Assembly: GCF_058153355.1 (NCBI RefSeq)
Contig: NZ_CM177019.1
Strand: one strand, 5' to 3'
DNA length: 64,000 bases
A program made the position numbers and the translations under genes. The notes below the pieces were generated by a model that had not been told where the DNA came from, searched no databases, and was given only the letters and a program-made list of their open reading frames with translations. The first letter of the stretch is position 1. Every line of letters begins with the position of its first letter. This document shows, in pieces, positions 6,563 to 59,150 of the stretch.

Positions 6563-7113
6563 AAAACTCCTGCATGGCGCAAGTTAATCACCCGCGGCCA
6601 AAGTTCGAAATAACGCTGCTCTGAAAGCCAGGCGTCAGGATAAAGCGCCATATAGTGTTTGATACGCATCAGCGGCGCAAGAAGCGGTTGCTCGCCACGG
6701 CGATAACTGTCGATAAGCGCCGCCAGCTGCTGGCGTTCTGTGGAATCAATATGTGGGCGAAAATAACCCTGAACGTGCATCAAAACGTTGGTGTGATCGC
6801 GCGGGTTGGCGGGATGAGAAAGCAAAACAATGACGCGTTGGCGGTACTGGTTGTAATAGTCATCCAGATTTTGCCACTGGTGAATATCAGCCACAAACGG
6901 GCCAAGTTTGCGGTATTCCGGCTGGGAATGAGCCAGAAAGACGAGTTTATAGCGGCTGTGATAATCGTTGAGCGCCCCGCGCGTTAAGCCATGTTCTTTC
7001 AGTCGATGTAACTCATAAAGCGCGAAGATACGGATTAAAGTGCTTTCATCAAATCGTTGCTGATTCATTACTGCTCCTGAACGGTTTACAGGAGTAAGTG
7101 TAGACGTTGGCAA
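6559..7113 (-). CDS. ybgA: DUF1722 protein YbgA (co-transcribed with phr)
   Basis: ORF whose stop overlaps phr start by 4 bp; true start may be an internal ATG (K-12 protein is shorter than the 184-aa maximal ORF). Confidence 0.7.
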   Translation of the reverse strand: MPTSTLTPVNRSGAVMNQQRFDESTLIRIFALYELHRLKEHGLTRGALNDYHSRYKLVFLAHSQPEYRKLGPFVADIHQWQNLDDYYNQYRQRVIVLLSHPANPRDHTNVLMHVQGYFRPHIDSTERQQLAALIDSYRRGEQPLLAPLMRIKHYMALYPDAWLSEQRYFELWPRVINLRHAGVL

Positions 7114-7128
7114 ATGATGTTTGTGAAG

Positions 7129-7986
7129 TTAATCCTGTTGTAGCAGGGCAAGATTACGAAAGCACGCTCCCCGCAAGGACTGACGCCAGGTAGTTTCTGT
7201 CCATGGCTGCCCTTTCCATTCACACGTGAAATCAATAAGTTCATCAGGGACATCGCAAACAATGTGAAGACGGATTTCTTCTCTGCCGTGACTCTTTTCA
7301 CTAATTGCGTAACTGTCATGCTCTGGATTATTTAATTCTTTCAGTGAGAATTTTTCCTCAAAGGCTTTATTTAGCCGCCCCTGGTTTCCTTTTACAGCGA
7401 ATAAATAATCACCTCCCTGTTTTTGTATCTTCTCTGCAATATCTTTCTGGCAACCCATCGCATCAGTTGTGATGATTTTTCCTTTAATATCCAGCATGTT
7501 AAGAAGTTCAGGGATAGCTGTAATTTCATTTGATTTCTCATCCGTCCTGATCTGTCCGATGACCAGACTGTGCATTGTTGAGAACGCACTAATGACATGA
7601 ATCGCTCCCCTGCAGCGACTCTTGTCATAAGAATGCCGGAGCTTTTTTCCATCAATTGCAATGACGTCTTTATCATCTGAAGAATGGCAGTCACGCATCC
7701 AGTTAATAAAGCACTCGTGAAATTTTGCAGGACTGATACAGGATACAACTCTGGCAATGGTATCGTGAACAGGAATACCATTTTCAAAATCACCCTATTG
7801 CTTCAAAAAATCGAGATGTGTTTCCCCAAAATCCTCTATATCTTCTCAACCTTCTGCACCCGAAATAACGGCGCAAATAGTCAACAGTAGAATATCCGAT
7901 AATTTATGTTCCACTTTCCAGGCTTGTCTGTAATCGGGGATAATAGAAATATGTTCCATCAATTTTTTAAGTACCATTTTGTTCTC
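7129..7986 (-). pseudogene. Decayed H-repeat (ISAs1-family) transposase: frameshifted and internally deleted
   Basis: N-terminus [43 protein letters not shown] then stop; body in two overlapping frames (7392-7793 and 7129-7698); the canonical C-terminal peptide [12 protein letters not shown] appears out of frame after ...EWKG, indicating an internal deletion. Confidence 0.8.
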
Positions 7987-8370
7987 CTTAATTATGTAAG
8001 GAGTATTTGATCATGTATAAGCAATAAAAAACAGCTTCAGGTAATGAGGAATATCTCAATTTTTAAACATAAAATGCGAATTGTTTAGTACAAAAAAGCA
8101 GCGTTACGTGATCTTTTCCTGCCATGGGTCTTTACCACAGCAGCTGGGGTTGTTTGGGACCGACTTCCGACAGCAGATCCCGGTGAGCCTGCCACCATCT
8201 CTTCACAAGCTTATGCTTATTACATGCAAAACGTCCCGTTTTGCATCTTTGTGCCTACGGCACACGATGATCTTTCCCTGAGGAGTCATACTTTGTTAGG
8301 ATAAAAAACCTTTAAATAGCTTTCCTACCTTCCAATAAAAACCACAGAATCAGCAATGTTTAAATTTCAA

Positions 8371-9192
8371 TCAGTATTGAGTTTCATTTGTGATCTCTAC
8401 ATTCACTCCTGATGGCTTCTCGCTAAATAAATATCTCATACTCTCATTCTCCATAATCACGGATATATTTAACCCTCCATGAATCCATTGATATGTAATA
8501 TTTTTATCATCAATCTTATAACTAAAATTCCCAATTGGTAACTTTTCCTTCAGATAATTATTCTCCTCATAACTAAGTGCTAGTAATTTATCATAGGCAC
8601 CTTTTAAATCAAAACCCTCAAAATAGCAATGTTCTTTTGATGAACCATCAAATTCTTTTCTGGGATTAGCATCATGACACCAAGTCGACCATTTTTCTTT
8701 TTTTTCCTCAGAAGTATGTTTTTTTTCATTGAAAAACAGCACATAATATTTCTCTGGGATTATTATCTGATCATTAATTTTTAAGATATCTCTATATGGC
8801 CCAGGACATTTATGAACAGAATCCATAATGGATATTTCTTCAGGAAAAAGTTTGCCTTCATGTTTAAATAATTTCCTGTACATACCAACTGTTGTTTGTG
8901 ATAAGTAATATGACAAGGGCTTTTTTTTAACTTCAACATAGTCAGTCGAGCATACGAGACTATTTTCCAATGAATAATCATTTATCGTTAGCTTTCGCCC
9001 ATCCATATTTATCACTACCTTACTGTATGTTTCATCAAGGGCACTTATTATAAGCGAATCATGTTTACCAAAAACATCGATATCTGAAACATTATGATAA
9101 ATCCATACGGTATTTTTAGTATTATCATTAGAATATGCGATACCATGAATAAAAAAAATCATTAGAAAGCCCATAAAAAATTTACCGCGCAT
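8371..9192 (-). CDS. Secreted (signal-peptide) protein of unknown function; candidate immunity protein for the upstream effector
   Basis: 273-aa ORF, N-terminal hydrophobic signal peptide (MRGKFFMGFLMIFFIHGIAYS), very AT-rich and K/N/E-rich; AAGGA ribosome-binding site; starts 19 bp after the effector stop. Confidence 0.6.
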   Translation of the reverse strand: MRGKFFMGFLMIFFIHGIAYSNDNTKNTVWIYHNVSDIDVFGKHDSLIISALDETYSKVVINMDGRKLTINDYSLENSLVCSTDYVEVKKKPLSYYLSQTTVGMYRKLFKHEGKLFPEEISIMDSVHKCPGPYRDILKINDQIIIPEKYYVLFFNEKKHTSEEKKEKWSTWCHDANPRKEFDGSSKEHCYFEGFDLKGAYDKLLALSYEENNYLKEKLPIGNFSYKIDDKNITYQWIHGGLNISVIMENESMRYLFSEKPSGVNVEITNETQY

Positions 9193-9211
9193 ACAAATTC
9201 CTTAATGTAAA

Positions 9212-11977
9212 TCAATGTGATGAATCATAAACATTATTCAAAAATAGATTTTGTTCTTTTCGGCGTCGTATAACAAGGCCAGCAACTCCGCCATTTGTAA
9301 TATCAAGAAATTCATTGGAGGCACCTATATAATCCTTTTGATTAAGTTTAGAATTCAAATTCGGTGCCTTACTCATGCTCCCCATATTAAACAATAAACT
9401 TATTAACGCATCAAATTCGTACTGATATAAATCCACACTCACTGTTCTTTTAAGCTCACTAACAAAACCAGATAAACGCTCTTCAAATAACTCATCAGCT
9501 TTAGCAATTGTTATTCCATGCTGAAATTCTTCTGGTAAAACTATATCATTGCAACGTTGTGTAGCAATTAAATGTCCATAACCTATAGTACAGTAACCTT
9601 CTGAATCATTATATGCTGTTAGTTGTAAATATTCCCATTCTTTTATAAAACCCTTACCTTTATTTGATACATTCAAATCTGCAATGGCGATCCTTTCAGC
9701 AGTTTGTTCTTCGTTAAAACTATTGATGTACCCCTCCATCAATATATCAATTGGATCATGTAAATCATCCCGTCTATAAAATGGAGGTATTTGTGTATTA
9801 TTCGGCGGAGGCGCTCCATTGTTTCCTGGATAGTATTCAAAATGCAACATATAAACCACTTCTTCCCCAGGGATTATAACTGGAGGCCTCCCTGTATCAG
9901 GTTTAATCATCAACCCTGTTTTGGCAATTATTGCCCCTTGCATAATATGATCATTAATCTTTACTAAAATACTTGATGGATCAACTTCACCATACCGCAC
10001 ATAGAAATGCCGACCATCTCTAGTCGAGTGCTCAATCGTAACTTGCCAAGTACCGTAATAGTATCGAGAAATAGCTCTTACTATTCCGTTGCAAACCGAA
10101 ACAATATCAGACTTCGGTTCCGTATATAGATCACGCGCTCCATGTTTTCTATTACCATTATTACGATTTCGTCCAAATATAGCTTGAGAGGCATTTCGAT
10201 CTGTCAAGGCAGCAGCCCAAAAATAATTTTTCCACTTTCCATTTTTGTCATTATTAGGTTTTACTTTTAAAGGAAAAATAATTTGATTTGATTTTTTCTG
10301 AGATAATGAATCTAAAAACACAACCGGATGAAAATGCCACACAGCATCATCACTATTAAACGGAGATACCCCGCTCATCCACTCCAGATCCAGCTGCCAC
10401 TTCTCACAGTATGCCACTTCCTCTGTATCCAGATCTTTATAAAATCCTTCCCACCGCCCTGTCGAGCGCCCTCCGTACCATTCGCTGTGGTGTTTAACTA
10501 TCAGATGATTCACCACATTTCTCACCAGTGGTTCACGCACGATCAGCGCCTGTCTGATCTCTTCCTCCGTCACTTTTCCATCACCGTCCTGATCCATACC
10601 CGCCATCAGCTCACGATAAAAGGGCGGTACCTGCTCATACAGCCACTCATCTCCCTGTTCTGCGGCACGGCTTATTGAGTCAAACGCTTCCGGCACCCAT
10701 CCTTCGTACGGGCTGTACGTCATGTCACCGCTGCTGTTCTCCTCCAGCGGTTGAAAACCCAGCTTCAGTAAATCATACTGTCCGGCCTCTTCAACATCCT
10801 TTTGTGGCAGCCAGCCGGTTCCGGTGATATTAAACCACCACTGCTGCGATTCATCCGTGACTGGTGTCGTGGCTTCCCGCGGAAGAACGCGCTGAGCACC
10901 CAGCGTGGCTGCGGTTGCGGTAAATACCTCCTGTCCCGGAACGGCCTGCCGGGTGTATAAAATTATCCCTTTTGGTGCCAGAACAGTCCGTTTTTCTCCC
11001 TTAACGCCTGCCGGGTTGGATAAGAACTTTGGCATATTCGGGTCTGTACTCAGAACCTCCAGATGGACGAACCACTCGCGCTCAATCTCACCGCTTCCCT
11101 CGCCAGGATAATCCTCGCATCCCATAAATCCGACCGGTGTTCCGGCACTGACTTTCCACTCTTCCGTTTCGTCGACCGTCTGTACCGAGTCAAAAATGCC
11201 TTTTGCCTTCGCCTTCTGCATCCACTCAGGCATCAGCATCTGTATTTCGCCATCTGACTCCATCAGATCCGGATCCAGGGTCACCCAGTACTGCTCATTC
11301 CCCGGTTTATTGCCTTCCAGCAGGCGAACCAGTCCGAATGTCGTCAGGACCGGCTGGCCGTTATTGGTCACGTAAAAACGTCCGGTCCGGGATGACACAA
11401 ACCGATCTCCCGCATTAAGTGTCCTGTTTCCGCTGATTTTCGGGGGTATCCAGTACGTGGCATGATCTCCGCTTTCCTGCCCCTCGGGAAGGCCGTTCTT
11501 TCCCGGGATGTATCGGTGCAGCAATATGCCACCATGCCCGGTTTTAACTTTATAGCAGGGGGAGCCGGGATAATCGTTCACCGGGGCCAGATGCATATAG
11601 AGACAGTAAAATTCCAGCCAGCTTTCTTTTTTTTGCGGGTCTGGCTGGCACTGCGATTTCACCAGAACAAATGTGCTGCTGTAACGGAGTTGCTGCCCTT
11701 TGTAGGGGCCTTTCAGGTAATCATTATTTATCCGGTACGCCGCAATGGTGCCATCGGCCATAAACTGAAGAGGAACCGGTTCTCCGGTAGCGGCGGTATC
11801 CGGTTTCAGGGCTGATAACGGATTAGACACGTCACTGATATGTATCCCGCCGTGCCACAGCCCGTTTCCACCCAGCAGCCAGGTTCCGTGCGCTTCTTTG
11901 TCAATAAGCCGCATTATCTCATCCAGTGAGCGAAACTCTTTGCCTTCTTTATCCCTGATGGGATGGCTGATTTTCAT
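9212..11977 (-). CDS. Candidate T6SS cargo effector: multidomain peptidoglycan hydrolase (M23/LytM-like domain plus C-terminal T4-lysozyme-like GH24 domain), with an EF-hand-like loop
   Basis: 921-aa ORF starting 9 bp after the vgrG stop with an AAGGA ribosome-binding site; C-terminus carries the phage-lysozyme signature EWEYLQLTAYNDSEGYCTIGYGHL; middle region has KHGARD (HxxxD) ... YMLHFEY (M23-like); DQDGDGKVTEEE calcium-binding-type loop. Confidence 0.7.
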   Translation of the reverse strand: MKISHPIRDKEGKEFRSLDEIMRLIDKEAHGTWLLGGNGLWHGGIHISDVSNPLSALKPDTAATGEPVPLQFMADGTIAAYRINNDYLKGPYKGQQLRYSSTFVLVKSQCQPDPQKKESWLEFYCLYMHLAPVNDYPGSPCYKVKTGHGGILLHRYIPGKNGLPEGQESGDHATYWIPPKISGNRTLNAGDRFVSSRTGRFYVTNNGQPVLTTFGLVRLLEGNKPGNEQYWVTLDPDLMESDGEIQMLMPEWMQKAKAKGIFDSVQTVDETEEWKVSAGTPVGFMGCEDYPGEGSGEIEREWFVHLEVLSTDPNMPKFLSNPAGVKGEKRTVLAPKGIILYTRQAVPGQEVFTATAATLGAQRVLPREATTPVTDESQQWWFNITGTGWLPQKDVEEAGQYDLLKLGFQPLEENSSGDMTYSPYEGWVPEAFDSISRAAEQGDEWLYEQVPPFYRELMAGMDQDGDGKVTEEEIRQALIVREPLVRNVVNHLIVKHHSEWYGGRSTGRWEGFYKDLDTEEVAYCEKWQLDLEWMSGVSPFNSDDAVWHFHPVVFLDSLSQKKSNQIIFPLKVKPNNDKNGKWKNYFWAAALTDRNASQAIFGRNRNNGNRKHGARDLYTEPKSDIVSVCNGIVRAISRYYYGTWQVTIEHSTRDGRHFYVRYGEVDPSSILVKINDHIMQGAIIAKTGLMIKPDTGRPPVIIPGEEVVYMLHFEYYPGNNGAPPPNNTQIPPFYRRDDLHDPIDILMEGYINSFNEEQTAERIAIADLNVSNKGKGFIKEWEYLQLTAYNDSEGYCTIGYGHLIATQRCNDIVLPEEFQHGITIAKADELFEERLSGFVSELKRTVSVDLYQYEFDALISLLFNMGSMSKAPNLNSKLNQKDYIGASNEFLDITNGGVAGLVIRRRKEQNLFLNNVYDSSH

Positions 11978-11986
11978 GTTCAGTCC

Positions 11987-14186
11987 TTATCGTGAGAATC
12001 TTCCCGGCCGTTGTGGCGGTACCTTATCCTGCTGGGGAGGATCAAAGGCTTCCTGTACACTTTTCCGTGGTGGCTCCGCCCCTTCAGTTCCAGGTCCGCC
12101 ATTGTCATAATCTGCCAGCGCTTTCAAAACCGCCGGTCGTAGCGTCGGCACCGGCGTTCCCGGACTACCGCCGCTATTGAGATTGATTTTCGGCCCGACG
12201 ATGTCCACGCCCCCTGAATGGATGACCACAAACGAACCACCCACCTTTAGGGTGATTTTACCGCCACTCTCCAGTACGATTTCATTCCGGACCTTCATTC
12301 CCAGCGCACCGGTAATCTTCCTCGCCAGGTCGCCCTTCACCTCCAGACTGTGCTTTCCCTCCACCAGGCTGATATGGTTCCCCGTCGTCTTATGCTCCTG
12401 CTTCCCTTCCACCGTCACTTTACGGTCGTTTCTGACATACAGGCCGTCATCGTGACTCACGCTCACCGTCCGGTCATTCGTCACCTTCAGCGTCTGGTCA
12501 TTACGTACCGTTATGCGCCGGTCGTTCGCCACCGTGATACTCTGGTCGTGACCCCCTTCTTTTCTGGTGCCGACCTCAACCGTCTGCCCCTTCACCACCC
12601 TTATCTTCTGGTCGTTACCGATGGTCTCCGTATGGTCATGCTTCACGTCCGTCGTCCGGTCGTTAAGCACCTCCGTGTCCATGTTCTTCTGCGCGTGGAT
12701 ATACACCTGCTCACTGTCCGTCGCATCCTCGAAACGCAGTTCATTAAAGCCGCTTCCTTTATAGGTCTTCGAGCGGATGGTCATCTGCGTCCGCGTGCCC
12801 GGTAAATCCCCCGGTGAACGGTTATCTTCATGGTAGGTCCGCCCCGTCACAATGGGCTGGTCCGGGTCGCCGTTCAGAAAGTCCACTATCACTTCCTGAC
12901 CCACACGCGGTATCGCCAGATTGCCGAACCCCGGTCCCGCCCATGCCTGCGACACCCGTATCCAGCACGAACTCTCCTCCGTCATCCCGTGATAACGGTC
13001 CCAGTGAAACTTCACCCGTACCCGGCCATGCTCGTCGCAGAATATCTCCTCACCCTTCGGCCCGGTCACGATGGCACTCTGCGGGCCGTCCACCTTCGGC
13101 TTCGGCAGCGGCGCGTGACGCCACGTCCTGTCTGCCGGTATCACCTCAAACTGATTGCTCAGTGTCGTCCCTTCACCGTGACTCCCGTGCAGCGCCTGCG
13201 GCTGTTCTCCCCGCAGTGTGCTTCCCACAACCTGCCATTCCCGGTTCAGCGTCTCTGAGGGATGGCCCGTCAGCCGGAACCGCGTTCCCGGCCACAGCCG
13301 CGCCGTGTTACACACCCCGCTCGCCGTCTCCGCCCCGTTCCGCCACCCTTCCGTCTGGTAACGCGCAAAATCCTGGCCATGCTGCTCATCCTTGAAACGC
13401 CCCGGATAATCAAATATCTCGTACTGCGTTCCCTGCCCGTTCAGGCTCTCCCCGTCATGGCTGTAGTACCCCGGCCACCCCGGCGTTTTGAACGTATAAT
13501 CCTGCGTCTCCACCGACGCCACGCTTATCTGCGCACGGTAACGAAACTCACTGATGTACTCCGTCGTTCCCCCGGTCGTGGTATTCGGGTTAAACGCCAG
13601 CGCCCCCATTCCCGTCAGCCCCGCCACGTCATCACACACCGCCAGCTTCTGCTCCGGCCCTTCCTGACCGCAGCGCTCATAAAAGAAGATACCTTCCTCC
13701 GCCCACAGCCGGGTCAGGAATGCCAGGTCGCTCTCCCCGTACTGCACGCAGAACTCCCGCGCCGGGTGCGCCTCATAGAACAGCGGCATCCACGCCGTCA
13801 CCCCGTTCTCTCTCAGAAGCTGTGCTGATATCGTCTGAATGTCCTGCTGCTGGAAGATACGGAAGTTCTGCCGTAACCCTGCCCGCCACAGCGGCGGGCT
13901 GATGCTCAGGGAATAACGCATCTGCCAGTCGTTGTTCTCACCGAGCTGCACCTCCGTCACGATACCGCTGACGTAACGCTGCGGGATATCACCCTGCCAG
14001 ACCGTCAGCACCGCGCTCTTCTCCAGAAAATCCTCCGCCATCAGGTCGGACAGCCCGCTGGCGATATCCACATCCAGGATGAACGACGTGCAGTGGTGCT
14101 GGTACAGACGGAAGCTCACCACCGCCGTCGCCATCTCCACGATACCGTCCACCGACAGCGTGAAACGTAATCCTTCTGAGGACATA
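11987..14186 (-). CDS. vgrG: Type VI secretion spike protein VgrG (gp27/gp5-like)
   Basis: About 733 aa from MSSEGLRFTL; characteristic VgrG N-terminus, gp5-like beta-helix repeats (VTVxNDRxxTV...) and Pro-rich C-terminal tail; the maximal ORF extends 11 codons further upstream. Confidence 0.85.
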
Positions 14187-14360
14187 TAAACCCCATAGCT
14201 ACCGCACTCATGGTGCAAACCATACGGGCTTATAAGAAAGGCTTAAGTGAGATATCTGCCAGATAGCAACTATTAGGAAAATATTTATATATATTTCATG
14301 AATATATATTTCGGTTGGTATAACGGTGTCTAAATATTCCTCTGAACATCTTCCTGATAC

Positions 14361-14394
14361 AAAAAAACCGCCAGCGTCTCCGCTGGCGGTTTTC
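14361..14394. terminator. Rho-independent terminator downstream of ybfA
   Basis: GC hairpin accgccagcg/cgctggcggt flanked by A-run and T-run. Confidence 0.6.
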
Positions 14395-14415
14395 TTTGAA
14401 CGTCATGTTTAGCAA

Positions 14416-14622
14416 TCAGTAAAAATCACCGGTTGCCTTTTCGGCCTGATCCATCCACACCGGTTTATCGCTGGTTTTCGACCAGACGCGATGCAGGTAG
14501 CTGTAAAAGCGGGCGCGGTCTTTCCAGAAAAGCATGAAAGGCAGCGCCAGGACGCCCGCTGCAACCGCATAAGTACGGCGTAAAAAGATAAGCCATGCAG
14601 GATATTCTCTGTAGAGTTCCAT
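14416..14622 (-). CDS. ybfA: DUF2517 small membrane protein YbfA
   Basis: 68-aa ORF recognised as YbfA. Confidence 0.8.
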
Positions 14623-14830
14623 ACTTTTCTCCCCCTTTTGTATCTACCCGGTGAATGGCACCGGAAAAATGAATTTGTTTATCTGATGAAAATAGTACCG
14701 CCTTTTGTGTAATTTTACTACTCATCCGACCACTTATTTTTGCTTATTGATGGTTTATTTACATTCACTCTGTAATTAAGTTACACAAAAGTTAAATTAA
14801 TACTAAACATTAGTTAAATCATGGCTTTTG

Positions 14831-14857
14831 CCATTTTTATACTTTTTTTACACCCCG
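14831..14857 (+). promoter_or_regulatory. T-rich KdpE operator in the kdpFABC promoter
   Basis: ccatttttatacttttttttacacc about 80 bp upstream of kdpF; recalled KdpE binding site. Confidence 0.5.
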
Positions 14858-14934
14858 TCCGCAGATTTTTGCGAAATCTTTGCAGCCAGAATTCTACCCT
14901 TCCGGTATCACTTTTAGGCCACTGGAGGTGCACT

Positions 14935-15024
14935 GTGAGTGCAGGCGTGATAACCGGCGTATTGCTGGTGTTTTTATTACTGGGTTATCTGGTTTATGCC
15001 CTGATCAATGCGGAGGCGTTCTGA
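14935..15024 (+). CDS. kdpF: Kdp-ATPase small subunit KdpF
   Basis: 29-aa hydrophobic peptide [29 protein letters not shown]; GTG start preceded by GGAGG; stop overlaps kdpA start. Confidence 0.8.
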
Positions 15025-16697
15025 TGGCTGCGCAAGGGTTCTTACTGATTGCCACGTTTTTACTGGTATTAATGGTACTGTCGCGTCCTTTAGGCAGCGG
15101 GCTGGCGCGGCTGATTAATGACATACCTCTTCCCGGTACAGCGGGCGTTGAGCGCGTACTTTTTCGTTTACCTGGCGTCTCTGACCGTGAGATGAACTGG
15201 AAGCAGTATCTCTGTGCCATTCTCGGCCTGAACATGCTGGGGCTGGCAGTGCTGTTTTTTATGTTGCTCGGTCAGCACTATCTGCCGCTTAACCCGCAGC
15301 AACTGCCGGGGCTGTCGTGGGATCTGGCGCTGAATACCGCCGTCAGCTTTGTCACGAATACCAACTGGCAATCTTACAGCGGTGAAACCACATTAAGCTA
15401 TTTCAGCCAGATGGTGGGCTTAACGGTACAAAACTTTCTTTCTGCCGCCAGCGGGATTGCGGTGATTTTTGCCCTCATCCGTGCATTTACCCGCCAGAGC
15501 ATGAGCACACTCGGGAATGCCTGGGTCGATCTGCTACGCATCACGTTATGGGTGCTAGTCCCTGTGGCGTTGTTGATCGCACTGTTTTTTATTCAACAAG
15601 GTGCGCTGCAAAACTTTCTGCCCTATCAGGCGGTGAATACCGTTGAAGGAGCGCAACAGCTGTTACCCATGGGGCCTGTAGCTTCTCAGGAAGCGATCAA
15701 GATGCTCGGTACTAACGGCGGTGGCTTCTTTAATGCCAACTCGTCGCATCCGTTTGAAAACCCAACCGCACTGACCAACTTCGTGCAGATGCTGGCGATT
15801 TTCTTGATCCCAACAGCGCTGTGCTTTGCCTTTGGTGAAGTGGCAGGCGATCGCCGCCAGGGGCGCATGTTGCTGTGGGCGATGTCAGTGATTTTTGTCA
15901 TCTGCGTAGGCGTGGTGATGTGGGCAGAAGTTCAGGGTAATCCTCATCTGCTGGCGCTGGGTGCGGACAGCAGCATCAATATGGAAGGTAAAGAGAGCCG
16001 TTTCGGCGTGCTGGTCAGTAGCCTGTTTGCGGTCGTGACTACAGCGGCTTCCTGTGGCGCGGTGATTGCGATGCATGATTCGTTTACCGCTCTCGGCGGC
16101 ATGGTGCCGATGTGGCTGATGCAAATTGGTGAAGTGGTGTTCGGCGGTGTCGGTTCTGGTCTTTACGGCATGATGCTGTTTGTCCTGCTGGCGGTGTTTA
16201 TTGCTGGGCTGATGATTGGTCGTACGCCGGAATATCTGGGTAAAAAAATCGACGTACGCGAGATGAAACTGACCGCACTGGCGATTCTGGTCACTCCAAC
16301 GCTGGTACTGATGGGCGCAGCACTGGCGATGATGACCGACGCCGGACGTAGCGCCATGCTCAACCCTGGCCCGCATGGTTTTAGCGAAGTGCTGTACGCC
16401 GTGTCATCCGCCGCTAACAACAACGGCAGCGCCTTTGCCGGATTAAGCGCCAACTCTCCGTTCTGGAACTGTTTACTGGCGTTCTGCATGTTTGTCGGTC
16501 GCTTCGGGGTGATTATCCCGGTAATGGCAATTGCCGGTTCGCTGGTGAGTAAAAAGAGCCAACCCGCCAGCTCCGGCACGCTGCCAACGCACGGCCCGCT
16601 GTTTGTTGGCCTGTTAATCGGCACCGTGTTGCTGGTTGGCGCACTGACCTTTATCCCTGCCCTGGCGCTTGGTCCGGTGGCGGAATATCTCTCCTGA
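15024..16697 (+). CDS. kdpA: Potassium-transporting ATPase subunit A
   Basis: 557 aa from [12 protein letters not shown]...; the six-frame ORF over-extends upstream. Confidence 0.9.
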
Positions 16698-16719: not shown

Positions 16720-18768
16720 ATGAGTCGTAAACAACTGGCGCTATTCGAACCAACACTTGTCGTTCAGGCGCTGAAAGAAGCGGTGAAAAAATTAAACCCG
16801 CAGGCGCAATGGCGCAATCCGGTGATGTTTATCGTCTGGATCGGCAGTCTGCTGACCACCTGTATTAGCATCGCGATGGCAAGCGGCGTGATGCCTGGCA
16901 ATGCGCTGTTTAGCGCGGCAATTAGCGGCTGGCTGTGGGTCACCGTACTGTTCGCTAATTTCGCCGAGGCGCTGGCAGAAGGCCGCAGTAAAGCGCAGGC
17001 CAACAGTCTGAAAGGGGTGAAAAAAACTGCCTTTGCCCGCAAGCTGCGTGAGCCGAAATATGGCGCTGTGGCAGACAAAGTTCCTGCCGATCAACTGCGT
17101 AAAGGCGATATCGTACTAGTAGAAGCTGGCGATATTATCCCCTGCGATGGTGAAGTCATTGAAGGGGGTGCATCGGTCGATGAAAGCGCCATCACTGGGG
17201 AATCGGCACCGGTGATCCGTGAATCCGGTGGCGATTTTGCCTCCGTCACTGGCGGCACGCGTATTCTTTCTGACTGGCTGGTGATTGAGTGCAGCGTTAA
17301 CCCCGGTGAGACATTTCTGGATCGGATGATCGCGATGGTGGAAGGCGCGCAGCGACGTAAAACGCCGAACGAGATTGCCCTGACCATTCTGCTGATTGCC
17401 CTGACTATCGTCTTTTTACTGGCAACCGCCACGCTGTGGCCGTTTTCCGCGTGGGGCGGTAATGCAGTCAGCGTAACGGTACTGGTGGCGCTGTTGGTCT
17501 GTCTGATCCCAACCACTATTGGCGGCCTGTTGTCAGCGATCGGCGTCGCCGGAATGAGTCGGATGCTGGGCGCGAATGTGATTGCCACCAGCGGACGTGC
17601 AGTTGAAGCGGCGGGCGACGTGGACGTCCTGCTGCTGGATAAAACCGGCACCATCACACTCGGTAACCGTCAGGCATCAGAGTTTATCCCTGCGCAGGGC
17701 GTAGAGGAAAAAACGCTGGCCGACGCAGCACAACTGGCTTCGCTGGCCGACGAAACGCCGGAAGGCCGCAGTATTGTGATCCTCGCCAAGCAGCGTTTTA
17801 ACCTGCGCGAGCGCGATGTGCAGTCGCTTCACGCCACTTTTGTACCGTTTACTGCGCAAAGTCGAATGAGCGGGATCAATATCGACAACCGTATGATCCG
17901 TAAAGGTTCTGTCGATGCCATTCGCCGCCATATTGAAGCTAACGGTGGTCACTTCCCTGCCGATGTCGATCAAAAAGTCGATCAGGTTGCGCGTCAGGGG
18001 GCCACGCCTCTGGTAGTGGTGGAAGGTTCCCGCGTGCTGGGCGTTATTGGGCTGAAAGATATCGTCAAAGGCGGCATTAAAGAGCGCTTCGCCCAACTGC
18101 GCAAAATGGGCATTAAAACGGTGATGATTACCGGTGATAACCGTCTGACTGCCGCCGCGATAGCTGCGGAAGCGGGTGTCGATGATTTTCTCGCCGAAGC
18201 GACACCGGAGGCCAAGCTGGCATTGATTCGTCAGTATCAGGCGGAAGGCCGTTTGGTGGCGATGACCGGCGACGGCACCAACGATGCTCCGGCGCTGGCG
18301 CAGGCAGATGTCGCGGTAGCGATGAACTCCGGCACTCAGGCGGCGAAAGAAGCGGGCAATATGGTGGATCTCGACTCTAACCCGACCAAGTTGATCGAGG
18401 TGGTGCATATTGGCAAACAGATGCTGATGACCCGTGGCTCGCTCACTACCTTCAGCATCGCCAACGATGTGGCGAAATACTTCGCCATTATTCCGGCGGC
18501 GTTCGCGGCAACGTATCCGCAGTTAAATGCGCTGAACATCATGCGCCTGCATTCGCCCGACTCCGCCATTCTCAGTGCGGTCATTTTCAACGCCTTGATT
18601 ATCGTCTTTTTGATTCCCCTGGCGTTAAAAGGCGTGAGTTATAAACCGCTTACCGCTTCTGCCATGTTGCGCCGTAACTTATGGATTTACGGTCTGGGTG
18701 GGCTGCTGGTGCCGTTTATTGGTATCAAAGTCATTGATTTACTGCTGACCGTTTGCGGTCTGGTGTGA
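16720..18768 (+). CDS. kdpB: Potassium-transporting P-type ATPase subunit B
   Basis: 682 aa; P-type ATPase motifs DKTGTIT and [12 protein letters not shown]. Confidence 0.95.
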
Positions 18769-18776
18769 GGTTTACC

Positions 18777-19349
18777 ATGAGTGGATTACGTCCGGCATTA
18801 TCAACATTTCTCTTTTTGTTACTGATTACTGGCGGTGTTTACCCGCTGCTGACCACCGCGCTGGGGCAATGGTGGTTTCCCTGGCAGGCCAATGGTTCGT
18901 TGATTCGCGAAGGTGATACGGTGCGCGGCTCGGCATTAATCGGGCAGAATTTTACCGGCAACGGCTATTTTCATGGTCGCCCGTCGGCAACGGCAGAAAT
19001 GCCCTATAATCCACAGGCTTCTGGCGGGAGCAATCTGGCGGTCAGTAACCCTGAGCTGGATAAACAAATCGCTGCACGCGTTGCCGCATTACGGGCCGCT
19101 AACCCGGACGCCAGCACGAGCGTTCCGGTTGAACTGGTGACGGCGTCAGCAAGCGGGCTGGACAATAACATTACCCCGCAAGCGGCGGCCTGGCAGATTC
19201 CTCGCGTGGCGAAAGCGCGTAATCTCAGCGTTGAACAGCTCACGCAGCTGATCGCAAAATATAGCCAACAACCGCTGGTGAAATATATCGGCCAGCCGGT
19301 CGTCAACATTGTCGAACTCAATCTGGCGCTGGATAAGCTTGATGAATAA
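18777..19349 (+). CDS. kdpC: Potassium-transporting ATPase subunit C
   Basis: 190 aa from [11 protein letters not shown]... Confidence 0.9.
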
Positions 19350-22026
19350 CGAACCCTTACGTCCCGACCCCGATCGTCTGCTGGAACAAACTGCCGCGCC
19401 GCACCGGGGGAAGCTGAAAGTTTTTTTCGGTGCCTGTGCAGGCGTCGGGAAGACCTGGGCGATGCTGGCAGAAGCCCAACGACTGCGGGCGCAAGGGCTG
19501 GATATTGTGGTTGGCGTGGTTGAAACTCACGGACGGAAAGATACCGCCGCAATGCTGGAAGGGCTGGCTGTTCTGCCGCTAAAACGCCAGGCGTACCGTG
19601 GGCGGCATATCAGCGAGTTTGATCTCGATGCCGCCCTCGCCCGCCGTCCGGCGCTGATCTTAATGGACGAACTGGCGCACAGTAATGCGCCAGGTTCTCG
19701 TCATCCTAAACGCTGGCAGGACATTGAAGAGCTGCTGGAAGCAGGCATTGATGTTTTCACTACCGTCAACGTTCAGCATCTGGAAAGTCTGAATGATGTG
19801 GTCAGTGGCGTCACCGGAATTCAGGTACGGGAAACCGTGCCCGATCCTTTTTTTGATGCTGCCGACGACGTGGTGCTGGTGGACTTGCCCCCGGACGATC
19901 TGCGCCAGCGGCTGAAAGAAGGCAAAGTCTATATTGCCGGGCAGGCGGAGCGCGCCATTGAACACTTTTTCCGCAAAGGCAATCTGATCGCCCTGCGCGA
20001 ACTGGCACTGCGCCGTACTGCCGATCGCGTAGATGAGCAAATGCGCGCCTGGCGGGGGCATCCTGGCAAAGAGAAAGTCTGGCACACGCGCGACGCGATC
20101 CTTTTATGTATTGGGCATAACACCGGCAGCGAAAAACTGGTCCGCGCGGCGGCGCGGTTGGCGTCACGGCTGGGGAGCATCTGGCACGCGGTGTATGTTG
20201 AAACCCCTGCCCTGCACCGCTTACCGGAGAAAAAACGTCGGGCAATTCTCAGCGCCTTACGTCTGGCGCAGGAGCTGGGCGCGGAGACGGCAACACTTTC
20301 TGATCCAGCGGAAGAGAAAGCGGTAGTGCGTTATGCCCGTGAACATAATCTCGGCAAGATTATTCTCGGTCGCCCGGCCTCGCGCCGCTGGTGGCGTCGG
20401 GAAACGTTTGCTGACCGACTGGCGCGAATCGCCCCCGATCTCGATCAGGTGCTGGTCGCGCTTGATGAACCACCCGCCCGCACGATTAACAACGCGCCGG
20501 ATAGCCGCTCTTTTAAAGACAAGTGGCGGGTACAGATTCAGGGATGCGTGGTTGCCGCCGCGTTATGCGCCGTTATCACCTTAATTGCCATGCAGTGGCT
20601 GATGGCGTTTGATGCCGCCAACCTAGTGATGCTGTATCTGCTTGGCGTGGTGGTGGTGGCGCTATTTTATGGACGCTGGCCTTCGGTGCTTGCTACCGTC
20701 ATTAATGTGGTGAGTTTCGATCTCTTTTTTATCGCCCCACGCGGCACGCTCGCCGTCTCTGATGTGCAGTATCTGCTGACTTTCGCGGTGATGTTAACCG
20801 TCGGGCTGGTGATCGGGAATCTTACTGCTGGCGTACGTTATCAGGCGCGGGTAGCCCGTTACCGCGAGCAACGCACACGACACTTATATGAAATGTCGAA
20901 AGCTCTGGCTGTGGGACGCAGTCCGCAGGACATCGCCGCCACCAGCGAACAATTTATTGCTTCCACGTTTCATGCCCGCAGTCAGGTGTTGTTGCCCGAT
21001 GACAACGGCAAATTGCAGCCGTTGACACATCCGCAAGGAATGACGCCGTGGGACGATGCCATCGCGCAATGGAGTTTTGATAAAGGCCTGCCTGCGGGCG
21101 CGGGCACCGACACGTTACCCGGTGTGCCATACCAGATTTTGCCGTTAAAAAGCGGCGAGAAAACCTACGGACTGGTGGTGGTGGAACCGGGGAATCTGCG
21201 CCAGTTGATGATCCCGGAACAGCAACGCCTGCTGGAGACGTTCACGCTGTTAGTTGCCAATGCCCTGGAACGCCTGGCACTGACCGCCAGCGAAGAACAG
21301 GCGCGGATGGCAAGCGAACGAGAACAGATCCGCAACGCCCTGCTGGCGGCGCTTTCGCATGATTTACGCACGCCGCTTACGGTGCTGTTCGGTCAGGCAG
21401 AAATCTTAACGCTCGATCTGGCAAGCGAAGGATCGCCTCACGCCCGCCAGGCCAGCGAGATTCGTCAGCATGTGCTGAACACGACCCGACTGGTGAATAA
21501 TCTACTGGATATGGCGCGAATTCAGTCCGGCGGCTTTAATTTGAAGAAAGAGTGGTTAACGCTGGAAGAAGTGGTCGGCAGCGCGCTGCAAATGCTGGAA
21601 CCGGGTTTATCCTCGCCCATCAACCTTTCTCTGCCAGAACCGCTGACCTTAATCCACGTTGACGGGCCACTCTTTGAACGGGTGCTGATTAATCTGCTGG
21701 AGAACGCGGTGAAATACGCGGGTGCGCAGGCCGAAATTGGTATCGATGCCCACGTTGAGGGCGAAAATCTACAACTGGATGTCTGGGATAACGGCCCCGG
21801 TCTTCCACAAGGCCTGGAGCAGGCGATATTCGATAAGTTTGCTCGTGGAAATAAAGAGTCGGCGGTGCCGGGCGTTGGGCTTGGGCTGGCAATTTGTCGG
21901 GCGATTGTGGATGTACACGACGGCACCATTACCGCGTTCAACCGACCGCAAGGTGGTGCCTGTTTTCGTGTTACACTTCCCCAGCAAACTGCCCCTGAAC
22001 TTGAAGAATTTCATGAGGATATGTGA
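19342..22026 (+). CDS. kdpD: Sensor histidine kinase KdpD
   Basis: 894 aa from [14 protein letters not shown]; histidine-kinase H-box (LSHDLRTPL) and ATPase motifs; start overlaps kdpC stop. Confidence 0.9.
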
Positions 22027-22700
22027 CAAACGTTCTGATTGTTGAAGATGAACAGGCTATTCGTCGCTTTCTGCGCACAGCGCTGGAGGGCGATGGGATG
22101 CGCGTCTTTGAGGCCGAAACGCTGCAACGCGGCTTGCTGGAAGCGGCAACCCGTAAGCCAGATTTGATTATTCTCGATCTCGGCCTGCCAGACGGTGATG
22201 GGATTGAGTTTATCCGCGACCTGCGCCAGTGGAGCGCGGTGCCAGTAATTGTGCTTTCCGCCCGCAGCGAAGAGAGCGACAAAATCGCCGCGCTGGATGC
22301 CGGAGCGGATGATTACCTGAGTAAGCCATTTGGTATTGGCGAATTACAGGCCCGTCTGCGCGTTGCTTTACGCCGCCACTCTGCTACCACCGCGCCCGAT
22401 CCGCTGGTGAAATTTTCTGATGTTACCGTCGATTTAGCCGCCCGCGTAATCCACCGCGGCGAGGAAGAGGTGCACCTCACACCGCTTGAGTTCCGCCTGC
22501 TGGCGGTGCTGCTCAACAACGCCGGAAAAGTGCTCACCCAGCGCCAGCTCCTCAACCAGGTGTGGGGGCCAAATGCGGTCGAACACAGCCACTATTTGCG
22601 TATATATATGGGGCATCTGCGACAAAAACTGGAGCAAGATCCCGCCCGCCCTCGCCATTTTATTACTGAAACCGGTATTGGGTATCGGTTTATGCTTTGA
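22023..22700 (+). CDS. kdpE: Response regulator KdpE (OmpR family)
   Basis: 225 aa; receiver domain plus winged-helix; overlaps kdpD stop by 4 bp. Confidence 0.9.
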   Translation: MTNVLIVEDEQAIRRFLRTALEGDGMRVFEAETLQRGLLEAATRKPDLIILDLGLPDGDGIEFIRDLRQWSAVPVIVLSARSEESDKIAALDAGADDYLSKPFGIGELQARLRVALRRHSATTAPDPLVKFSDVTVDLAARVIHRGEEEVHLTPLEFRLLAVLLNNAGKVLTQRQLLNQVWGPNAVEHSHYLRIYMGHLRQKLEQDPARPRHFITETGIGYRFML

Positions 22701-28394: not shown

Positions 28395-28493
28395 GCCGGA
28401 TGCGGCGTGAACGCCTTATCCGTCCTACAAAATAGTGCAAATTCAATATATTGCACCATCCTCGTAGGCCTGATGAACGTAGCGTATCAGGCT
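28395..28493. repeat. REP/BIME cluster (two inverted REP units)
   Basis: gccggatgcggcgtgaacgccttatccg..cctac and gtaggcctgatgaacgtagcgtatcaggc. Confidence 0.8.
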
Positions 28494-47826: not shown

Positions 47827-47903
47827 TGGCTACGTAGCTCAGTTGGTTAGAGCACATCACTCATAATGATGGGGTCACAGGTTCGAATCCCGTCGTAGCC
47901 ACC
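47827..47903 (+). tRNA. metT: tRNA-Met (elongator, anticodon CAU)
   Basis: 77-nt cloverleaf ggctacgtagctcag...ctCATaa...gtagccacca. Confidence 0.9.
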
Positions 47904-47911
47904 ATCTTTTT

Positions 47912-47996
47912 TGCGGGAGTGGCGAAATTGGTAGACGCACCAGATTTAGGTTCTGGCGCCGCAAGGTGTGCGAGTTCAAGTCTCGCCTCCCGCACC
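47912..47996 (+). tRNA. leuW: tRNA-Leu (anticodon UAG)
   Basis: 85-nt sequence with long variable arm, ends ...cccgcacca. Confidence 0.85.
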
Positions 47997-48019
47997 ATTC
48001 ACCAGAAAGCGTTGTACGG

Positions 48020-48094
48020 ATGGGGTATCGCCAAGCGGTAAGGCACCGGTTTTTGATACCGGCATTCCCTGGTTCGAATCCAGGTACCCCAGCC
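48020..48094 (+). tRNA. glnU: tRNA-Gln (anticodon UUG)
   Basis: 75-nt tggggtatcgccaagcggtaaggcaccggtttTTGat... Confidence 0.9.
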
Positions 48095-48129
48095 ATCTTC
48101 TTCGAATAAGCGGTTCACCGCCCGGTTAT

Positions 48130-48204
48130 TGGGGTATCGCCAAGCGGTAAGGCACCGGTTTTTGATACCGGCATTCCCTGGTTCGAATCCAGGTACCCCA
48201 GCCA
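48130..48204 (+). tRNA. glnW: tRNA-Gln (anticodon UUG), tandem copy
   Basis: Identical to the 48020-48094 copy. Confidence 0.9.
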
Positions 48205-48219
48205 TCGAAGAAACAATCT

Positions 48220-48296
48220 GGCTACGTAGCTCAGTTGGTTAGAGCACATCACTCATAATGATGGGGTCACAGGTTCGAATCCCGTCGTAGCCACCA
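48220..48296 (+). tRNA. metU: tRNA-Met (elongator, anticodon CAU), second copy
   Basis: Identical to the 47827-47903 copy. Confidence 0.9.
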
Positions 48297-48344
48297 AATT
48301 CTGAATGTGTCGAATGCGTTCGGCAAATTCACAAACCAATTTGT

Positions 48345-48419
48345 TGGGGTATCGCCAAGCGGTAAGGCACCGGATTCTGATTCCGGCATTCCGAGGTTCG
48401 AATCCTCGTACCCCAGCCA
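48345..48419 (+). tRNA. glnV: tRNA-Gln (anticodon CUG)
   Basis: 75-nt ...ccggattCTGattccgg... Confidence 0.9.
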
Positions 48420-48456
48420 ATTTATTCAAGACGCTTATATTGTAAGTGCACCCAGT

Positions 48457-48531
48457 TGGGGTATCGCCAAGCGGTAAGGCACCGGATTCTGATTCCGGCA
48501 TTCCGAGGTTCGAATCCTCGTACCCCAGCCA
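48457..48531 (+). tRNA. glnX: tRNA-Gln (anticodon CUG), tandem copy
   Basis: Identical to the 48345-48419 copy. Confidence 0.9.
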
Positions 48532-58081: not shown

Positions 58082-58990
58082 ATGCAATTACGTAAACCTG
58101 CCACAGCAATCCTGGCCCTGGCGCTTTCCGCAGGACTGGCACAGGCAGATGACGCCGCCCCGGCAGCAGGCAGTACGCTGGACAAAATCGCCAAAAACGG
58201 TGTGATTGTCGTCGGTCACCGTGAATCTTCAGTACCTTTCTCTTATTACGACAATCAGCAAAAAGTGGTGGGTTACTCGCAGGATTACTCCAACGCCATT
58301 GTTGAAGCAGTGAAAAAGAAACTCAACAAACCGGACTTGCAGGTGAAATTGATTCCGATCACCTCACAAAACCGTATTCCGCTGCTGCAAAACGGCACTT
58401 TCGATTTTGAATGTGGTTCTACCACCAACAACGTCGAACGCCAGAAACAGGCGGCTTTCTCCGACACTATTTTCGTGGTCGGTACGCGCCTGCTGACAAA
58501 AAAAGGCGGCGATATTAAAGATTTTGCCGATCTGAAAGACAAAGCCGTCGTAGTCACTTCCGGCACCACCTCTGAAGTTTTGCTCAACAAACTGAATGAA
58601 GAGCAAAAAATGAACATGCGCATCATCAGCGCCAAAGATCACGGTGACTCTTTCCGCACCCTGGAAAGCGGTCGTGCCGTTGCCTTTATGATGGATGACG
58701 CTCTGTTAGCCGGTGAGCGAGCGAAAGCGAAGAAACCAGACAACTGGGAAATCGTCGGCAAGCCGCAGTCTCAGGAAGCCTACGGTTGCATGTTGCGTAA
58801 AGACGATCCGCAGTTCAAAAAGCTGATGGATGACACTATCGCTCAGGTGCAGACCTCCGGTGAAGCGGAAAAATGGTTTGATAAGTGGTTCAAAAATCCA
58901 ATTCCGCCGAAAAACCTGAACATGAATTTCGAACTGTCGGACGAAATGAAAGCACTGTTCAAAGAACCGAATGACAAGGCACTGAACTAA
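58082..58990 (+). CDS. gltI: Glutamate/aspartate ABC transporter periplasmic binding protein
   Basis: 302 aa from MQLRKPATAILALALSAGLAQA (signal peptide). Confidence 0.9.
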   Translation: MQLRKPATAILALALSAGLAQADDAAPAAGSTLDKIAKNGVIVVGHRESSVPFSYYDNQQKVVGYSQDYSNAIVEAVKKKLNKPDLQVKLIPITSQNRIPLLQNGTFDFECGSTTNNVERQKQAAFSDTIFVVGTRLLTKKGGDIKDFADLKDKAVVVTSGTTSEVLLNKLNEEQKMNMRIISAKDHGDSFRTLESGRAVAFMMDDALLAGERAKAKKPDNWEIVGKPQSQEAYGCMLRKDDPQFKKLMDDTIAQVQTSGEAEKWFDKWFKNPIPPKNLNMNFELSDEMKALFKEPNDKALN

Positions 58991-58994
58991 TTAC

Positions 58995-59150
58995 AAGAAC
59001 CAGGGGCGGAAATTCCAGCCCTCTCGATTGTTACGTAGCACGGACAGACTATACGCCTGATGGTCGTTCCCCATCGGGCCTGAAAACCGCAATACGCTGG
59101 GTAACAATCTTCGAGGGTAGCAGTTAACGCTGCTACCCTTTTTTTTCTGG
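58995..59150 (+). ncRNA. sroC: Candidate SroC-type sRNA from the gltI-gltJ spacer
   Basis: 169-bp structured intergenic segment ending in a strong terminator hairpin gggtagcagttaacgctgctaccc plus T8. Confidence 0.45.

Follow-up and report, generated by a model that had tools for sequence, protein, structure and literature searches.

The window analysed here is a stretch of 64,000 nt from contig NZ_CM177019.1 (NCBI RefSeq assembly GCF_058153355.1). It harbours an intact kdpFABC-kdpDE locus, in which kdpA, kdpB, kdpC, kdpD and kdpE all gave full-length Pfam matches (Table 1). The kdp operon is known to be activated by KdpE and to be induced at low K+ concentrations. The gene ybfA, which codes for a DUF2517 protein, was found upstream of kdpF on the opposite strand. 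The start codon of kdpA read from the window is the same as that given by RefSeq. Downstream of the kdpF-kdpA junction, the remaining junctions of the operon are mixed, with values of +22, +8, -8 and -4 nt.

Table 1 Position of the kdp genes, their control elements and other features of the window
Feature	Position	Strand	Remarks
In-frame N-terminal extension of kdpF, spurious	14821-14934	+	38 codons from ATG 14821; makes a 67-aa ORF 14821..15024
KdpE binding site, direct-repeat half-sites	14836-14852	+	S1 TTTATA 14836-14841, S2 TTTACA 14847-14852, 5 bp between
Putative core promoter end	14895-14907	+	Candidate -10 TACCCT 14895-14900; probable transcription start ~14903-14907
kdpF Shine-Dalgarno GGAGG	14924-14928	+	6-nt spacer to GTG 14935-14937
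kdpF CDS	14935-15024	+	29 codons + TGA, GTG start; single transmembrane helix, GRAVY 1.89
kdpA Shine-Dalgarno GGAGG	15012-15016	+	Within kdpF codons Ala-Glu-Ala, 7 nt before kdpA ATG
kdpA (557 aa), channel-like subunit	15024-16697	+	Pfam KdpA 798.9 bits; ATG shares A of kdpF TGA
kdpB (682 aa), P-type ATPase subunit	16720-18768	+	Pfam E1-E2_ATPase, Hydrolase; 22-nt gap after kdpA
kdpC (190 aa)	18777-19349	+	Pfam KdpC 236.9 bits; 8-nt gap after kdpB
kdpD (894 aa), sensor kinase	19342-22026	+	Pfam KdpD, DUF4118, GAF_3, HisKA, HATPase_c; 8-nt overlap with kdpC
kdpE (225 aa), response regulator	22023-22700	+	Pfam Response_reg, Trans_reg_C; GTG start, GTGA overlap with kdpD
ISAs1-type DDE transposase remnant	7129-7698	-	
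Rfam group-II-D1D4-2 (group II intron domain)	8079-8196	-	Marginal: 42.9 bits, gathering score 36
273-aa ORF	8371-9192	-	No Pfam match
921-aa ORF	9212-11977	-	EF-hand, M23-like (below cut-off) and phage-lysozyme domains
vgrG/tssI	11987-14218	-	Left of ybfA
ES036/CssrF sRNA	28429-28471		45.5 bits
Seven tRNA genes	47828-48531		Met-Leu-Gln-Gln-Met-Gln-Gln
sroC sRNA	58986-59148		173.9 bits

On the plus strand, positions 14935-15024 read GTG AGT GCA ... TTC TGA. Translation gave 29 codons and a stop codon, and the encoded peptide is markedly hydrophobic, with a value of 2.56 for the best 19-residue window. An earlier sequence-only reading of this DNA had described a hydrophobic peptide of this length with a GTG start preceded by GGAGG, and both elements were found at the expected place (Table 1). 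Characteristic for the KdpF family (PF09604, TIGR02115) are hydrophobic peptides of 25-31 residues with one transmembrane helix and a C-terminal motif of the YLxYALxxxExF type, which are encoded immediately 5' of kdpA. The peptide from the window has these properties: it consists of 29 residues that form one helix, and its stop codon overlaps the ATG of kdpA, which is followed by kdpB and kdpC. The scores obtained were above the cut-off values of Pfam PF09604 (28.9 bits, cut-off 21.2), the NCBIfam equivalog NF011332 (76.7 bits, cut-off 56, with residues 1-29 aligned to model positions 1-29) and NCBIfam TIGR02115 (34, cut-off 26.85).

With Met in place of the initiator, the peptide is the same as the 29-residue, single-helix chain D of PDB entry 6HRA (14 PDB entries in the set). 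The 27-residue KdpF chains of the 5MRW type (11 PDB entries) correspond to its residues 1-27. It thus shows 100% identity with the E. coli KdpFABC chain of at least 25 PDB structures, and also with the KdpF peptide that co-purifies with the complex.

Short ORFs are plentiful in this region: the 9.5 kb around the gene contain 129 that are 20 aa or longer. Because of this number, the 29-codon ORF by itself is within chance expectation, and it is homology and context that raise it above chance. That the ORF arose by chance and has no product is nevertheless a practically negligible possibility: homology, structural data and conservation all speak against it, and the peptide is identical to a subunit resolved by crystallography and cryo-EM.

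Comparison with E. coli K-12 yielded identical DNA over the promoter, the leader, the GTG codon, the 29 codons and the TGATG junction of kdpF (b4513; YP_588443.1). In K-12 MG1655, the gene is located on the minus strand at 728732-728821 and has one base in common with kdpA. It is also flanked by the same genes as in the window, kdpABCDE being downstream and ybfA, on the other strand, upstream. Over 341 nt (14720-15060), the two sequences differ at four positions, three of which are upstream of kdpF and one in kdpA; one of the three upstream differences is a C-to-T exchange just 3' of the KdpE site. A 501-nt query around kdpF had matches in 5423 of 5426 complete E. coli genomes, and the matched region carries annotations of kdpF and kdpA. 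The same number was obtained with a 201-nt query, in this case with 3475 genomes at an identity of at least 99%. kdpF was annotated in every E. coli record among the matches listed and in every region compared, and its RefSeq boundaries in all other E. coli records examined are those of the window.

Divergent alleles of the gene in E. coli, coding for T7A or for T7A together with N25H, keep the GTG codon and TCTGATG. In E. coli SCU-301 (NZ_CP051751.1; L015:376-453), an in-frame deletion of 12 nt leads to a KdpF of 25 residues without four residues of the N-terminal side, which is still annotated as kdpF.

The earlier reading had named the ORF kdpF. This assignment was confirmed, as the sequence agrees in every base with b4513, whose annotated GTG start and stop are the same, and the comparison with the annotated gene showed complete agreement with the RefSeq boundaries. 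It is virtually certain that we are dealing with kdpF, which as first cistron opens the kdpFABC operon of Escherichia coli, an operon inducible by K+ limitation. The gene at 14935-15024 is an already known and annotated, ordinary gene. Observed directly were the identity of the sequence, its membership in the family, its context in the operon and the conservation of start codon and junction; membership in the complex, the stabilising role and the KdpE sites are taken from the literature.

The same reading had remarked that kdpF is buried in a longer spurious ORF, which turned out to be true in two frames. In the phase of kdpF, the ORF list reports a 67-aa ORF starting with ATG (14821..15024) that contains the gene, and the 29-codon frame is never listed separately. 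In the phase of kdpA, the frame is open for 48 codons upstream of the kdpA ATG (14880-15023, plus strand), with TTG 14880 and GTG 14928 in frame, and a 605-aa ORF starting with TTG extends over 14880..16697 on the plus strand. Since open frames overlap kdpF in two phases, a caller that selects the longest ORF would yield a KdpA of 605 aa and lose kdpF.

Several in-frame alternatives to the annotated start codon exist, namely ATG 14821 and TTG 14869 upstream, and GTG at codon 5, TTG at codon 10 and GTG at codon 12 within the gene. ATG 14821 indeed opens the frame, and the internal GTG and TTG codons are present, so that the true gene could be the 67-codon ORF or kdpF could start at codon 5, 10 or 12. 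We consider this very improbable. ATG 14821 precedes both the KdpE sites and the probable transcription start and would hence not be part of the kdp mRNA; TTG 14869 likewise lies ahead of this start. The 38-aa extension has no match to any NCBIfam family, and the in-frame upstream stretch is devoid of any ATG, GTG or TTG in Klebsiella aerogenes and Proteus mirabilis. For these three reasons, the 67-codon ORF is regarded as spurious. None of the internal candidates is preceded by a Shine-Dalgarno sequence at working distance, and two of the three are lost in K. aerogenes, which has ATC at codon 5 and ACG at codon 10. GTG at codon 12 is kept in K. aerogenes, but without a Shine-Dalgarno sequence before it. 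The end-to-end alignment with NF011332 and the PDB chains, which begin with M-S-A-G, are also at odds with any other start. The literature searched yielded reviews and citations of Gassel 1999 on this point, and no ribosome-profiling, start-codon or N-terminal data for the GTG codon of kdpF.

The sequences of the KdpE half-sites and their 5-bp spacing are as defined previously (PMC3264566). In the window, the distance of TTTATA-N5-TTTACA from kdpF agrees with that in the literature, with kdpD and kdpE intact downstream, and the region of the site is identical to K-12. The kdp leader, which we take to be 28 nt long, would place the transcription start at 14907. With this start, both half-sites fall inside the KdpE footprint of -72..-50 (PMC3264566) and TACCCT is located at -12..-7, which is compatible with a figure that was not itself derived from the footprint. 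The half-sites have also been numbered -67..-62 and -56..-51 relative to a promoter derivative (bioRxiv 10.1101/256826), from which a +1 position of 14903 follows. From these two estimates, which are 4 nt apart, we infer a transcription start at approximately 14903-14907 and a leader of 28-32 nt. A scan of 14400-15100 for the sigma-70 consensus revealed no promoter, which is uninformative and was to be expected of a promoter that depends on the activator KdpE.

A hairpin of 9 bp with three G-U pairs (14909-14930, plus strand) pairs the GGAGG of kdpF in the minimum free energy fold of the leader. As a regulatory element it was rejected: K. aerogenes does not share the hairpin, and in strain SCU-301 an A-to-C exchange breaks one pair without compensation. 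A terminator-like hairpin inside kdpF (14953-14969) was attributed to chance, with a count of 2 in the region compared to 0.9 +/- 1.1 in shuffled sequences.

Beyond E. coli, kdpF of K. aerogenes differs from that of the window in 14 codons, seven of which are synonymous only, while seven change the amino acid. The amino acid changes are for the most part conservative and located in the N-terminal third of the peptide. In the 60 nt upstream of kdpF, 43 of 60 ungapped positions differ between the two. GGAGG-N6-GTG is kept in K. aerogenes and in the divergent E. coli alleles, including the spacing. In the GenBank annotation of K. aerogenes NCTC10006, kdpF is uncalled and kdpA is split in two.

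A tblastn search of plasmid records with the N-terminus of KdpA yielded 471 records, and 12 loci were sampled. A short hydrophobic ORF was present just upstream of kdpA in 11 of these 12; in the record of Acinetobacter baumannii, the scan upstream of kdpA detected no KdpF-like ORF. The motif YLxYALxxxExF was found in KdpF-like ORFs of Proteobacteria, Actinomycetota and Halobacterium, and in a slightly divergent form in Bacillota and Deinococcus. Among the ten other taxa, eight have an ORF that can start with ATG (six of these are annotated and two are not called). In L. grayi, TTG is the sole option, and in Deinococcus, GTG is the sole candidate with which the motif is retained. In this sample, the GTG start of kdpF is characteristic of the Escherichia/Klebsiella lineage.

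The distance between kdpF and kdpA in other taxa ranges from -4 to +129 nt. E. coli, K. aerogenes and Tsukamurella share a value of -1 nt, and Mycetohabitans has -4 nt; for Acetobacter, Halobacterium and Proteus the value is +2 nt, and for S. meliloti it is +129 nt. On the megaplasmid of Mycetohabitans rhizoxinica, a micro-ORF of 34 aa annotated as 'potassium ABC transporter ATPase' (L005:308-412) has 4 nt in common with the start of kdpF, so that this kdp operon opens with two tiny cistrons.

KdpF-like ORFs without annotation were found in K. aerogenes (L003:412-501), P. mirabilis (L004:415-498), Deinococcus (L010:439-519) and on plasmids of L. plantarum (L007:392-472) and L. grayi (L011:401-478), with the reservation for plasmid kdpF ORFs that the gene table of PLSDB records is incomplete. 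The records of K. aerogenes, L. plantarum, Deinococcus and Listeria grayi bear out the remark of the earlier reading that the gene is easy to miss. Some deposited records, such as that of Klebsiella aerogenes NCTC10006 and those of several plasmid-borne kdp operons, are still without a kdpF annotation.

At the junction itself, the stop codon of kdpF (TGA, 15022-15024) and the start codon of kdpA (ATG, 15024-15026) form TGATG with an overlap of 1 nt, exactly as read before from the sequence. The stretch GCGGAGGC(G/A)TTCTGATG is conserved in the E. coli variants and in K. aerogenes. Coupled translation of the two genes had been deduced from this overlap. Of the two properties looked for in this respect, the overlapping or abutting stop and start codons are present as UGAUG (15022-15026), again conserved in the E. 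coli variants and K. aerogenes. The second, a dependence of kdpA translation on kdpF through a masked start or the lack of a Shine-Dalgarno sequence, was not found, as kdpA is preceded by GGAGG. For 14907-15060, the predicted mRNA fold does not exceed shuffled sequences in stability (z = -1.16; 25 of 200 shuffles at least as good). As the fold is not significant, nothing suggests that the start of kdpA is masked until kdpF has been translated. Because kdpA has its own Shine-Dalgarno sequence, coupling is not needed to explain its translation, and in other taxa the two genes are set apart. The overlap is real and conserved in close relatives, and none of the features examined pointed to a dependence of kdpA translation on kdpF. 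Translational coupling of kdpF and kdpA, with which the overlap is compatible, is plausible and would probably be partial.

KdpF has been reported to stabilise the complex in vitro, and Kdp reportedly functions in vivo without it (PMC3618439, with reference to Gassel 1999). This reported dispensability would argue against a strict dependence of kdpA on kdpF. It would also fit an ORF that acts mainly as a regulatory uORF or leader, in which termination and reinitiation at UGAUG set the translation of kdpA and the peptide is secondary. The overlap of 1 nt in E. coli, K. aerogenes and Tsukamurella, the overlap of 4 nt in Mycetohabitans and the position of the kdpA Shine-Dalgarno sequence inside codons of kdpF point in the same direction. 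Such a mainly regulatory role is, however, quite unlikely. At least 25 PDB entries show the peptide as a stoichiometric subunit, and kdpA has a consensus Shine-Dalgarno sequence at optimal spacing with no significant masking structure. In addition, the amino acid motif is conserved across phyla, even in S. meliloti. Its conservation despite the gap of 129 nt in this species indicates that selection preserves the peptide itself. We also rejected the idea that the C-terminal ExF motif exists only to supply the Shine-Dalgarno sequence of kdpA, as the motif persists in S. meliloti with kdpA 129 nt away.

Apart from its role as a subunit gene, kdpF might be under a dual constraint in Escherichia and Klebsiella. 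The last five codons together with UGAUG would then serve both as coding sequence of the peptide and as ribosome-loading site of kdpA, and the weak GTG start would partly set the rate of KdpA synthesis by termination and reinitiation. We put this forward as a tentative and rather doubtful idea; if true, the stoichiometry of the tiny subunit would be tied to that of the channel subunit.

The discovery of KdpF dates from 1999, when the kdp operon was examined, and the peptide co-purifies with the complex (Gassel et al., J Biol Chem 274:37901, cited in PMC10723866). It has been described as a 'lipid-like single spanner' (PMC6255902) and as one transmembrane helix which sits at the KdpA/KdpB interface and is static through the cycle (bioRxiv 10.1101/2021.01.09.426067). 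For the operon in the window, the following course is proposed. When K+ is scarce, phosphorylated KdpE would bind to TTTATA-N5-TTTACA (14836-14852) and activate transcription from approximately 14903-14907. The resulting mRNA would carry a leader of about 30 nt with GGAGG 6 nt before the GTG initiation codon, and translation of kdpF would yield the hydrophobic peptide of 29 residues with one transmembrane helix. Within the KdpFABC P-type ATPase, this helix would pack at the interface between KdpA and KdpB and probably act as a 'lipid-like' stabiliser, taking no part in the conformational changes. Ribosomes that terminate on kdpF could reinitiate on kdpA at UGAUG, and free 30S subunits could also load directly; both routes are possible given the UGAUG overlap and the kdpA Shine-Dalgarno sequence in the last codons of kdpF.

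AcrZ, CydX and MgtS, which are named in reviews (PMC12648545, PMC12350097, PMC10723866), are likewise very short transmembrane peptides associated with a larger membrane complex. They are unrelated to KdpF in sequence and belong to other partner complexes; the likeness is one of analogy only. Since KdpF has been known since 1999, is annotated in RefSeq and has been resolved by crystallography and cryo-EM, its detection carries little weight as a discovery. The recovery of a GTG-initiated gene of 29 codons from raw sequence under two longer open frames can instead serve as a positive control.

The region beyond ybfA differs from K-12. In K-12, rhsC is located beside ybfA, whereas the window features an island with vgrG and a putative effector gene at this position (7129-14218, minus strand). 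None of the complete E. coli genomes covers at least 80% of the 7.7 kb between 7000 and 14700 in one place. The best E. coli match to 7000-14700 has a coverage of 56% and an identity of 93% and lies at a different chromosomal position. The 273-aa ORF may code for an immunity protein. The group-II-D1D4-2 match is flanked by the transposase remnant and the 273-aa ORF and may represent an intron fragment in the island. Elsewhere in the window, sroC, ES036/CssrF and the tRNA cluster are known RNA features of E. coli.
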